Made by a program: the position numbers and the translations under genes. Shown in pieces: positions 40,232-43,348 of a stretch of 58,446 nucleotides of DNA (the first letter of the stretch is position 1; each line of letters opens with the position of its first letter). This stretch comes from an uncultured Planctomycetales bacterium (lineage in GTDB: Bacteria > Omnitrophota > Gorgyraeia > Gygaellales > Profunditerraquicolaceae). The stretch lies in the NCBI GenBank assembly GCA_964487475.1, contig CAZAPM010000013.1, positions 1 through 58,446 on the forward strand, read 5' to 3'. Below the pieces are notes generated by a model. The model did no database searches and had not been told where the DNA came from. It saw only the letters and a list, made by a program, of their open reading frames with translations.

Positions 40232-43200
40232 ATGATCCTATTGCTGGGTTTCATCATTGTGGCGACCATAGTGACCGTGATGTATGCGTTCATGGATTCC
40301 GAGACCGCGCCCCGGGCGCGCCAGGGGAATAACAGCGCAAAACAGCAGCAGGCGAACCGGGCACAGGAGGTTCAGCAGAAGGAAGAGAAGATCTCCCGCC
40401 TGGAGCAGGATTTGGCGCGGGTAGCCCAGGAATTGGAAAGCACCAAGGCGACCGAGGAGAGTTTGCAGAAGGTGATCCAGGCGATGCGGGAGACCGAGGC
40501 GGAGCTTAAATCCGATCTGCAGCGCCGGGAAGAATGGGTGGGCAAGAGCGAGGAAAAGGTCGGCAAATTCCAGCAGGAAGCGGAGGAGTTCAAGGAGAAA
40601 TTCCTGCTGAAAGAGAAGGAGCTGCAGTACGTTTTCGGCAAGAACGTCGAGCTGACGAAACAGGCGCGGGAGGCTTCGGAGGCGTTGGCGGAGCTTGACC
40701 GCCGTTTTAAGGCACTGGAGGAGGAGCGGGAGATTCTGCGCCACAAGACGGAACGCGATGCCAAGGAGCTCGAGGAGCGCGCAAAACTGATCGCCGAGCA
40801 TAATCGGCAGCAGGCCGCGAGTCAGTGGATCCCGAAAGAGGAATTCGCCAAGCTTAACGAGGAGTACACCGACCTGGAAAAGGAGCTGGAGGCGCGGGAT
40901 GCGAAGATCCAGGCGTTGTCGGAGGAGATCGCGAAACTGCGCGTGGGCCGTATCGAATCCGCGGCTGTTGAGCCTGTGCCTGCCGAGCCAATGTCCGTTG
41001 AGCCTGTGCCTGTCGAGCCGGCACCTGTCGAACCTGTACCTGTAGAGCCTGCCCCCGCAGAGCTTCCACCCGCAGAGCCGGATCCTTCCGAGTCTGTTCC
41101 CGTGGAACCTGTTTCTGCCGAGCCCGTTCCGGTTGAACCCGTTTCCCCGGAGCCCGCTTCGGAAGAACCCCTTTCAGAGGATGTGGCCGGTGCTCAGCTT
41201 TCTGCGGAGGAGGTGTCCCCTTTAGGGGCGTCCCCTTCAGGGGCGTCCCTAAAAGTTCAGGCGTTCGATCTGAGGAAGCACCGCAACATCGGGATCATGG
41301 CGCACATCGACGCCGGCAAGACCACCACTACGGAGCGCGTCCTCTTCTATACCGGCAAGTCCCATAAGATCGGGGAAGTGCACGACGGCGCCACCCAGAT
41401 GGACTGGATGAAACAGGAGCGCGAACGCGGCATCACCATCACCTCCGCCGCCACCACCTGCTTCTGGAACGACCACCGTATCACCATCATCGATACCCCC
41501 GGCCACGTGGATTTTACCGTCGAGGTAGAACGCTCCCTGCGCGTTTTAGACGGCGCGGTGGCCCTTTTCTGCGCCGTGGGCGGAGTGGAGCCCCAGTCCG
41601 AGACCGTCTGGCGCCAGTCCAATAAGTACCACGTGCCCAAGATCGCCTTCGTCAACAAGATGGACCGCACCGGCGCGGATTTTTACGCGGTGCTCAAGGG
41701 GATCGAGGAGGAACTGGAGGGCAATCCCGCCGCGCTGGTCATCCCGATCGGAGCGGAGGATACCTTTAAAGGGGTCGTGGACCTGCTGGAGATGAAAGCG
41801 TACATATACGATGATTCCACGCAGGGGAAGAATTACGTGGTTGAGGATATCCCGGAGGAGCTCAAAGAACAGGCGCTGCGCTACCGTCAGATGCTTATCG
41901 AGCGCGTGGCCGCCTTTGACGAAGGGCTGATGAAGAAATACCTGGAGGCTCCCGAGACCGTCACTTCGGAAGAACTGGTGCCCCTGATCCGCGCCGCCAC
42001 CATCGCCAATAAGATGGTGCCGGTGCTCTGCGGTTCCTCTTTCAAGAACAAGGGGGTGCAGAAGCTCCTGGATGCGGTCACCATGTTCCTGCCTTCACCC
42101 CTGGACCTGCCTGCGGTAAAGGGGCACGATCTCGATGACGCGGAGAAATTCAGCGAGCGCAAGCCCGATACCTCCGAGCCGCTTTCCGCGCTGGCCTTCA
42201 AGGTCCAGTCCGATCCGCACATGGGAAAGATCGTCTACGTGCGGGTGTACTCCGGCGTGCTGCAGACCGGCACGTATGTGCTTAATTCCACCAAGCGCAA
42301 GAAGGAGCGCATCAGCCGTATCGTGCGCATGCACGCCAACCAGCGCGAGAATATCGAGTATGCCTGCGCCGGGGAGATCGTGGCGGTCGCCGGGATCAAC
42401 AATACGGTGACGGGAGATACCCTCTGCGACACGGAGCATCCCGTGCTGCTGGAGGCGATCCAGTTCCCCACGCCCGTGGTCTCCTTAAGCATCGCGCCCA
42501 GCAGCCGCGCCGACCAGGAGAAACTGGGTAAGGCGCTGGCGCGCCTTTCCGAGGAGGATCCTACCTTCATGGTCACGACCGACGACGAGACCAAGGAGAC
42601 GCTGCTTACCGGGATGGGGGAGCTGCACCTGGAGATCATCGTAGACCGGATGAAGACGGAGTTCGGGGTGGAGGCCACGGTCGGCCAGCCGCGCGTCGCA
42701 TACCGCGAGACCGTGACCGCGGTCGCGCAGGCGGAGAACAAATACGTCAAGCAGTCGGGTGGCCGCGGCCAGTACGGCCACGTAGTGCTCGAGGTGAGCC
42801 CCGCCGCCGAGGGGGAAGGGTTCGAGTTCAAGGACAGTATCAAAGGCGGGGCCATCCCGCGTTCCTTCATCCCCGCCATCGAGAAGGGGATCGTGGAGAC
42901 CATGCAGAAGGGGGTGTACGCCGGATATCCCGTGGTGGATGTCAAGGCGGCCCTTCTGGACGGTTCTTACCATGACGTGGATTCCTCGGAAATGGCGTTC
43001 CGTATCTGCGCGAGCATGGGGTTCAAGGACGCGTTCATGAAGGCGTCCCCGGTGCTGCTGGAACCCTACATGAACCTGGAGGTCGTCACTCCCGAGGAGC
43101 ACGTCAATGCGGTCATCGGTTACATCTGTTCCCGCCGCGGCAAGATCATGAGCATGGACCCCAAGGGCAAGCAGAAGGAGGTCAAGGCGGAGGTCCCCTT

Positions 43201-43348
43201 ATCCGAGATGTTCGGGTACGTGACGGCGTTCCGTTCCCTGACCAGCGGCCGGGCGAACAGCACCATGGAGTTTTCCAAGTACCAGCAGGTGCCCAGGGAG
43301 ATCGCGGATAAGATCGTGGCGGAGCGCGCGCAGAAGAAATCCGCTTAA
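40232..43348 (+). CDS. fusA: elongation factor G with N-terminal membrane anchor, coiled coil and Pro-rich linker (1038 aa)
   Basis: Residues 345-1038 are a complete EF-G ([53 protein letters not shown]). Residues 1-344 are an in-frame extension. Confidence 0.92.
40967..41176 (+). repeat. 15-bp coding tandem repeat, 14 degenerate units (V/A-E-P-x-P/S)
   Basis: gttgagcctgtgcct gccgagccaatgtcc gttgagcctgtgcct gtcgagccggcacct ... gaagaacccctttca. Confidence 0.9.

Follow-up and report, generated by a model that had tools for sequence, protein, structure and literature searches.

The window analysed here, positions 1 to 58,446 of contig CAZAPM010000013.1 (assembly GCA_964487475.1) of an uncultured bacterium deposited as Planctomycetales and placed by GTDB in the Omnitrophota, carries a gene for an elongation factor G (EF-G) that is fused at its N-terminus to a predicted membrane anchor, a coiled-coil stalk and a disordered linker. 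The gene, at 40232-43348, is a single stop-free frame of 1038 aa, as a preliminary description of this DNA had stated, with zero N letters, and the fusion is conserved in a family that we call type A. EF-G is a textbook soluble factor. Our preferred reading, held with moderate confidence on the basis of sequence comparisons and structure models, is that of an active EF-G on a membrane scaffold that serves ribosomes gathered there, the tether partly replacing recruitment by ribosomal protein L12. From the N- to the C-terminus, a hydrophobic helix, a coiled coil, an acidic Pro/Glu linker and a full EF-G follow one another:

40232..43348, plus strand: whole gene, membrane-tethered EF-G of type A, 1038 aa (uninterrupted open reading frame, domain matches, family)
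40235..40303, plus strand: predicted single membrane anchor, N-terminus outside and C-terminus inside (N-out/C-in), residues 2-24 (hydropathy of 2.6, predicted helix, charge bias in the family)
40358..40942, plus strand: coiled-coil stalk, residues 43-237, predicted parallel in-register homodimer (structure models)
40826..40846, plus strand: conserved helix break W-[VI]-[PSA]-K-x-[ED]-[FY], residues 199-205 (alignment and model; beta-layer-like by motif comparison)
40943..41260, plus strand: disordered Glu/Pro-rich linker, residues 238-343 (AlphaFold2 and family composition)
40967..41176, plus strand: 14 five-residue units, residues 246-315, encoded by a 15-bp tandem repeat (repeat analysis)
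41211..41252, no strand assigned: in-frame copy of a genome-wide palindromic repeat resembling repetitive extragenic palindromic (REP) elements, at the linker end (genome repeat search)
41261..43345, plus strand: complete EF-G with domains G, G' and II-V and EFG I-type motifs (profile, fold and motif checks)
41912..41914, plus strand: A561, at the position of E. coli E228, an L12 contact in G' (alignment; role from PMC5887453)
42959..42988, plus strand: domain IV loop II with H914 (E. coli H584), intact (alignment)
43121..43129, plus strand: clade-specific change in domain V, Y964 and C966 instead of the canonical D634 and N/S636 (alignment)

The hydrophobic stretch from residue 2 has a 19-residue Kyte-Doolittle mean of 2.6, against 1.4 for the best stretch elsewhere in the protein, and no Lys or Arg stands ahead of it, in agreement with the preliminary description. 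AlphaFold2 predicts helices at residues 2-24, 42-196 and 202-240 with a break at 197-201, disorder over residues 239-339 and then an EF-G fold; the coiled coil proposed earlier is supported by these helices and by a model of two copies described below. The linker had been reported to contain 14 xEPxP repeats, and there are indeed 14 five-residue units, but only 7 of them read literally xEPxP. The full EF-G expected behind the linker is confirmed by the predicted fold, by the Pfam domains and by a match to TIGR00484 over residues 344-1032 (1050 bits, cut-off 659), and the catalytic and domain IV motifs were found again at residues 357 (AHIDAGKTT), 399 (RGITI), 421 (DTPGH), 475 (NKMD) and 910 (the ten-residue domain IV tip).

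The fusion junction

A 41-bp palindromic repeat that is present genome-wide sits at the junction, and Logan contigs end there. Contigs from four runs (98% likeness) abut on both sides of the junction with no other letters or gaps. None of the Logan contigs found bridges the repeat with 31 unique bases per side. A JGI protein that is identical at 747 of 748 residues crosses the junction in frame and may derive from the same site, and EF-G domains occur in 64 of the 73 matches to residues 1-360, one of the 64 being this JGI copy. We accept the join as real mainly because the fusion is conserved across the family. An assembly artefact at the linker repeat, to which the breaking contigs might point, is refuted at the family level and has a negligible probability: the same full fusion occurs in 62 of 80 GTDB loci, the JGI assembly has the identical in-frame junction, and the four runs gave no other sequence.

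The repeat family itself, palindromic with a 15-bp period, has 35 matches to its core pattern on contigs C2, C7, C8, C9, C10, C12, C14 and C21 and often forms inverted arrays around single genes. Relatives have a Lys/Pro-rich junction at the place of the in-frame copy. One frame of ~200 aa (C8:96041-96649, minus strand) sits between inverted arrays of the repeat and has motifs suggestive of a REP-associated (RAYT/Y1) transposase.

Distribution of the fused gene and of stand-alone stalks

A scan of GTDB with the stalk alignment found 98 stretches, of which 80 were kept; by title 62 come from Omnitrophota/Omnitrophica, 15 from Planctomycetales and 3 from others. Sorted by content, these 80 loci comprise the 62 full fusions, one fusion with a short start call, four fusions cut by the end of the locus, one broken fusion, 11 stand-alone stalks and one locus cut before the decision point. 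Long EF-G proteins with a predicted N-terminal transmembrane helix are found in related genomes, and the two parts do not occur as a split gene: the loci with stand-alone stalks hold no EF-G. A sample of the phylum gave the stalk in 85 of 301 genomes, as a single copy in almost all of them, and 44 of these 85 have it in a frame of at least 990 aa, across eight families; in the window's own family the stalk occurs in 47 of 48 genomes. Two fused genes contain a stop, one in the EF-G (L014, G004:C86) and one in the stalk (L090), which may reflect a pseudogene or a consensus error. At a locus titled Margulisiibacteriota (L106), the fused protein matches that of L013, from the window's family, in length and at both termini, and this title is probably a mislabel.

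On the stalk tree, the EF-G part was gained or lost in at least three and up to six state changes. In one genus, eight stand-alone stalks group as one clade within the fused ones and occupy the same place in the gene order, with a ratio of nonsynonymous to synonymous substitution rates (dN/dS) of 0.15 (10 of 28 pairs unsaturated); the stalk is under purifying selection after the loss of EF-G. Ten members of that genus have genomes in which the stalk frame is short (one such frame, of 412 aa, may be a cut fusion); each of these genomes gave only one EF-G match, with 56-59% identity, the level of the str type. Because stand-alone stalks persist under selection, EF-G appears as an optional cargo on a conserved scaffold. 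A 293-aa paralogue with an anchor and a coiled coil and no EF-G was also noticed (C10:21445-22383, L178); it scores 53 bits against the stalk profile and has no Pfam match.

A second tethered family

EF-G frames of 1003-1125 aa, here called type B, occur in 12 of 121 genomes of another order of the Omnitrophota. The 11 that were extracted consist of a coiled coil, an acidic linker and EF-G, and a hydrophobic helix is present in 8 of the 9 that have the full extension from the called start. NCBI names a member of one type B cluster Omnitrophica WOR_2. Type B EF-G is 71-72% identical to the fusA product of its own genome and nests within the str-operon clade of that order (100/100), and an approximately unbiased test rejects a single clade for the EF-G of types A and B (p-AU 6.6e-5; LG+G4, 36 rows). 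Two type B genomes that were checked have a normal str operon and a separate, stand-alone type A-like stalk.

In trees with only 4-7 outside references and no spdEFG or spdEFG2 reference, type A EF-G together with five untethered copies forms a deep clade of its own (100/100), apart from the Omnitrophota str-operon clade. The five untethered copies were nested among fused ones in the first trees and basal in a denser tree, so that the ancestral or derived direction is unstable. At one locus (L167, G096:C12) the gene directly after a 1080-aa tethered EF-G encodes an untethered 697-aa member of its paralogue clade.

Comparing the stalks profile against profile gave 96% between types B and A (reversed control 29%). 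We had regarded the type B stalk as unrelated when a single sequence gave 4% against the type A profile, and this view is withdrawn; the type B stalk can be called a remote homologue at best, or the likeness is generic. Two independent tetherings of EF-G are the simplest reading of these sequences, and a likely one; alternatively, EF-G may have been replaced within one ancient fusion. Under either scenario a near-canonical EF-G was newly placed on a tether.

Among the best 120 of 735 matches to an Omnitrophota EF-G query we found 114 new long EF-G proteins: 71 of type A, 9 of type B, one truncated type A, 10 with an N-terminal extension that lacks a hydrophobic helix and 23 without a long extension. 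No tethered EF-G from outside the Omnitrophota was among these best 120, a weak negative given the origin of the query.

Conserved and altered features of EF-G

With the TIGR00484 match above the cut-off, the Pfam domains of a five-domain EF-G, the predicted fold and the G motifs (G1 with Ala, RGITI, DTPGH, NKxD and G5), the EF-G part has the sequence features of EFG I, for which the classification in PMC3150367 allows extra-operonic copies. There, EFG II is described by the loss of RGITI (xxxSx), Gly/Leu in the P-loop and divergent domains I-III, spdEFG1 by a three-residue KDG insertion in switch I, and spdEFG2 as a group that clades with mtEFG2 and accompanies spdEFG1 in the absence of EFG I. 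RGITI is kept in all 87 type A sequences, and none has a KDG-type insertion, the spacing between G1 and G2 being 37 in each, equal to canonical EF-G. Of 157 columns that are invariant in canonical EF-G, 143 are kept in at least 90% of the 87 sequences; G1-G4, H92, Q508, G510 and G511 of the domain IV tip and H584 are kept in 100%. For 14 close fused genes the dN/dS of the EF-G part is 0.039 (41 of 91 pairs unsaturated).

Type A EF-G is nevertheless not fully canonical, since it is altered at one residue that contacts L12 and at two in domain V. L12 binds E224 and E228 of EF-G according to PMC5887453. E224 is retained in type A, whereas an acidic residue at E228 is found in only 2 of 87 type A sequences, as compared with 44 of 45 canonical Omnitrophota EF-Gs, five of five untethered paralogues, seven of seven outgroups and 6 of 11 type B sequences. 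The net acidity of the patch at 222-240 has a median of +1 in type A versus +4 in canonical EF-G, and +4 in type B. In domain V, D634 and N/S636 are replaced in type A, while type B keeps D634 and N636. The earlier interpretation is supported in part, by the fusion, the intact motifs, a second fusA, the topology pattern and the stalk; it is qualified by these changes, by the dispensability of the EF-G part and by the small cell volume, and the service to membrane-bound or polar ribosomes proposed there is hypothetical. Codon adaptation was considered as a further clue and did not discriminate: the EF-G part lies at the 97th percentile, fusA at the 93rd and the EFG II gene at the 91st of a reference of 515 frames that includes shadow open reading frames.

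Predicted membrane anchor, stalk and linker

The N-terminal helix is present in 85 of 87 type A proteins, and the remaining two look like late start calls. No Lys or Arg stands ahead of the helix in 84 of these 85, and a mean of 5.5 follows it. RNase Y from the same loci has a similar distribution (means of 0.45 before and 5.45 after the helix), unlike the peptidyl-prolyl isomerases (PPIases) with signal peptides (2.3 and 2.4). As the pattern matches that of RNase Y and not that of the PPIases, hydropathy and charge favour an uncleaved single-pass anchor with the N-out/C-in topology proposed earlier, and the charge pattern across the family fits this orientation.

Two copies of residues 1-240 model as a parallel in-register coiled coil over residues 43-237, with a score of 0.72 versus 0.00 for the best control, a contact agreement of at least 76% between runs and a predicted local distance difference test score of at least 83; the mark used is reached by 20 of 30 solved pairs and by 1 of 23 single chains. 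This supports a parallel dimer as a prediction, and the modelled stalk would be ~29 nm long if straight. W102, E128, W199 and L208 are invariant. The helix break W-[VI]-[PSA]-K-x-[ED]-[FY] is similar to the beta-layer motif found in trimeric coiled coils, for which PMC4786415 gives [aliphatic]-A-T-K-polar-[DE] with D/N/T/S as third residue in homotrimers; at this third position type A mostly has Pro, and the stand-alone stalks have S/A/T. By this likeness the stalk may be a trimer. In Pfam, NCBIfam, PHROGs, the PDB sequences and the ESM Atlas, the stalk had generic coiled-coil or unnamed matches only.

The linker has a median length of 89 aa (range 56-181, in 75 of 87 type A proteins measured) and is composed of 23% Glu and 15% Pro and nearly free of aromatics. 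A long, disordered and exposed linker invites the view that EF-G is cleaved off or made from an internal start, as a stored or passenger factor that backs up the soluble pool; the five untethered clade members and the short NCBI start calls (881-991 aa for some genes, 701 aa in one type B cluster) would suit it. We consider this quite improbable. Longer calls exist within the same NCBI clusters, the type A alignment contains no conserved linker motif, and internal starts ahead of EF-G are not conserved among the 87: an ATG lies within 25 codons of EF-G in 7 of them, and any start with a Shine-Dalgarno-like word in 5. In the window gene, as described earlier, there is neither a nearby ATG nor a ribosome binding site, the only alternative start being the GTG of V328, with no Shine-Dalgarno-like word at a usable spacing. 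Furthermore, the frame is still fused in at least eight families, and such a fusion probably arose twice.

A profile search with the stalk also retrieved stand-alone homologues of 210-240 aa and stalks that end in MshEN and PilZ domains, which we take to be cytoplasmic receptor domains for cyclic di-GMP; in hhalign comparisons the former reached 99.9% (reversed 19%) and the latter 99.2% (reversed 14%). The cytoplasmic domains on these homologous stalks also count in favour of our preferred reading. Five such homologues (P0154, P0182, P0202, P0217 and P0224), in which repeated stalk segments lead to a terminal MshEN that may be joined by PilZ, possibly represent a family of membrane-anchored cyclic di-GMP receptors. 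These receptor-bearing relatives suggest that the EF-G head could instead act as a sensor or regulator, reading GTP, (p)ppGpp or the state of the ribosome and signalling via the stalk to a membrane partner; the invariant stalk residues, the selection that persists without EF-G and the fixed clade-specific changes in domain V speak for it. Such a role appears improbable to us, since the disordered and unconserved linker of 56-181 residues, once with an in-frame repeat insertion, would be a poor mechanical coupler and adjacent kinase or regulator genes are not conserved among the family loci.

Possible function

We propose that a spare, likely active EF-G would be held on the cytoplasmic side by a flexible leash, at the tip of a coiled-coil scaffold anchored in the membrane, and would translocate or recycle ribosomes collected at this scaffold, or do both. 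The stalk would be an older Omnitrophota scaffold with a job and a partner of its own, onto which EF-G was presumably grafted twice. Held at high local concentration, the tethered EF-G could depend less on recruitment by the L12 stalk, and the eroded acidic patch of G' is proposed to follow from this partial replacement. The likeliest clients would be translocon-docked ribosomes or ribosomes at the scaffold's own site. An N-terminally fused EF-G can bind the ribosome, as there are ribosome complexes in the PDB with an L9-EF-G chimera in which EF-G starts at residue 75.

A bolder version is tentative and in our judgement more doubtful than probable. According to it, a translation station bound to the membrane evolved twice in the Omnitrophota, as a scaffold roughly as high as a ribosome with two or three leashed EF-G heads, whose tether would partly take the place of L12 recruitment and whose dedicated motor pool would drive or park docked ribosomes separately from cytoplasmic translation.

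Several observations weigh against an active EF-G that serves gathered ribosomes. The contrast at E228 is phylogenetically thin, resting on few independent events, and the five free copies are one group of unstable position. Because type B keeps E228 in more than half of its members and the acidic patch as a whole, erosion of this patch is no general result of tethering. The losses of E228 and D634 could equally mean lower activity. Nor is conservation of motifs proof that a function is retained: EF-G1A and EF-G1B of P. aeruginosa, 84% identical, differ 75-fold in translocation according to PMC3832671. Of the 80 loci, 11 have kept the stalk and lack EF-G, which is thus dispensable, and 216 of the 301 sampled phylum genomes gave no stalk match at all. 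Long coiled coils may pass the test for complexes through generic likeness. No conserved translocon or ribosome-related neighbour was found among the family loci, and no link to tethered EF-G emerged for a family of large secreted proteins encoded next to the gene at some loci. Finally, most Omnitrophota cells measure ~0.2 µm (PMC10066038), and a shell of 30-45 nm makes up 51-88% of the volume of a cell of 0.2-0.3 µm. Proximity alone would therefore localise little, and any benefit has to lie in a specific site or partner, or else in the holding of ribosomes.

Holding ribosomes is the core of another explanation, in which EF-G, instead of turning over in elongation, holds or protects idle or hibernating ribosomes at the membrane in a free-living phase of low activity. 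EF-G occupies idle, RaiA-bound ribosomes of E. coli (PMC12956868), and free cells of V. archaeovorus are described as ribosome-poor and attached ones as ribosome-rich (PMC10066038). The predicted oligomeric stalk, with two or three heads, would add avidity, the loss of E228 could slow L12-stimulated turnover, and the gene is dispensable. We nevertheless regard this role as rather unlikely, because the catalytic set and the domain IV loops are conserved at or above the level of canonical EF-G and type B derives from a fusA copy that was close to canonical, with D634 and N636 unchanged.

A conserved membrane-tethered EF-G that probably evolved twice implies that bacteria have been selected for control over where translocation or recycling takes place. 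The phylum concerned is widespread, has yet to be isolated and consists of ultra-small cells that probably depend on hosts. Sister copies with and without a tether differ at the L12 contact and offer a natural experiment on L12 recruitment, and membrane-localised translation becomes testable with one gene in a laboratory strain. In public annotation the protein is called 'elongation factor G', at times truncated, and the architecture is easily missed.

Genome context

The genome of the window (1.87 Mb, 94.6% complete) has a canonical fusA on contig C1, between genes that we take from their sequences to be rpsG and tuf, which settles the earlier question of a second, str-operon copy; its product is 56% identical to the fused EF-G. 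A separate, divergent EFG II-type gene lies on contig C2, and the fused gene is outside the str operon. In three families a recurrent order was seen, pheS-pheT-6S RNA-rarA-[gene]-PPIase-uvrD-...-5-formyl-THF cyclo-ligase-rny-ymdB, in which pheS, pheT, uvrD, rny and ymdB are presumed identities. As a clue to function it was rejected, because it is missing in this window and many others, and it was treated as inherited gene order. A dedicated ribosome recycling factor was likewise rejected, since 25 of 26 genomes have one ordinary match each and no paralogue. A link to giant proteins is unsupported: the large secreted family occurs in 7 of 10 short-stalk and 4 of 4 fused genomes of one genus, and genomes of the second order in which type B is missing have as many as 28 matches to it. 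A scan for promoters and terminators stayed at chance level.

The next gene (43402-44100) encodes a 232-aa protein with an anchor and a coiled coil, present in few related loci only and not detectably homologous to the stalk (profile comparison 32%, versus a reversed-type background). Giant open frames of 5,000 to >16,800 codons were noticed on contigs C15, C5, C16, C22, C2 and C23; the one on C15 spans the entire contig.

Comparison with known systems

Full-text searches for Omnitrophota together with EF-G, for anchored or extended EF-G paralogues and for membrane-tethered EF-G did not find this architecture, with subscription literature mostly outside their scope. The words 'membrane' and 'transmembrane' do not occur in the translational GTPase survey PMC4342817, nor does 'elongation factor' in PMC10066038, and the supplements of PMC12583861 gave no match for 'elongation factor G' or 'fusA'. 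A 2026 preprint on Omnitrophota genomes mentions EF-G, in the passages considered, as operon cargo only. The architecture is apparently undescribed, and new here are the second tethered family, the loss of E228 in tethered type A and the persistence of the stalk alone.

Type A shares the five-domain fold, the G motifs, RGITI and domain IV loops I and II with canonical EFG I (FusA; T. thermophilus 1dar, S. aureus 2xex, E. coli 4v7d). It differs by ~340 extra N-terminal residues with the anchor, stalk and linker, by its extra-operonic and dispensable gene and by the changes at E228, D634 and N/S636. A second EF-G is also found in P. aeruginosa (EF-G1A/EF-G1B), in Borrelia (EF-G1/EF-G2) and in the spdEFG1/2 pairs (PMC3832671, PMC3150367), and the presence of such a copy beside the str one makes a division of translocation and recycling possible for type A. 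In the accounts that these sources give, the split-function pairs are described without anchors, and type A has no KDG insertion and stands beside a str-operon fusA.

RNase Y (rny), which is encoded near many of the loci, likewise has a single N-terminal anchor with the same charge pattern, followed by a cytoplasmic coiled coil and then an enzyme. Its stalk is, however, not detectably homologous (hhalign 18%, anchor only), its cargo is another and it is no neighbour in the window. The engineered L9-EF-G chimera (PDB 4wpo and five further entries) also carries EF-G as an N-terminal fusion and is ribosome-bound, but it is artificial and tied to a ribosomal protein, not to a membrane.

By analogy, the best functional precedent is provided by the CAAD-anchored aminoacyl-tRNA synthetases of cyanobacteria, translation enzymes that were repeatedly and independently fused to an anchor that also stands alone (PMC4893482). 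They differ in that the CURT1/CAAD anchor, for which the window protein gave no Pfam match, places them at the thylakoid and in that they are monomers whose action is not on the ribosome; the part of PMC4893482 considered describes neither a long stalk nor a leash for them. For now, the tethered protein is best regarded as a modified EF-G and not as a machine of a new class.

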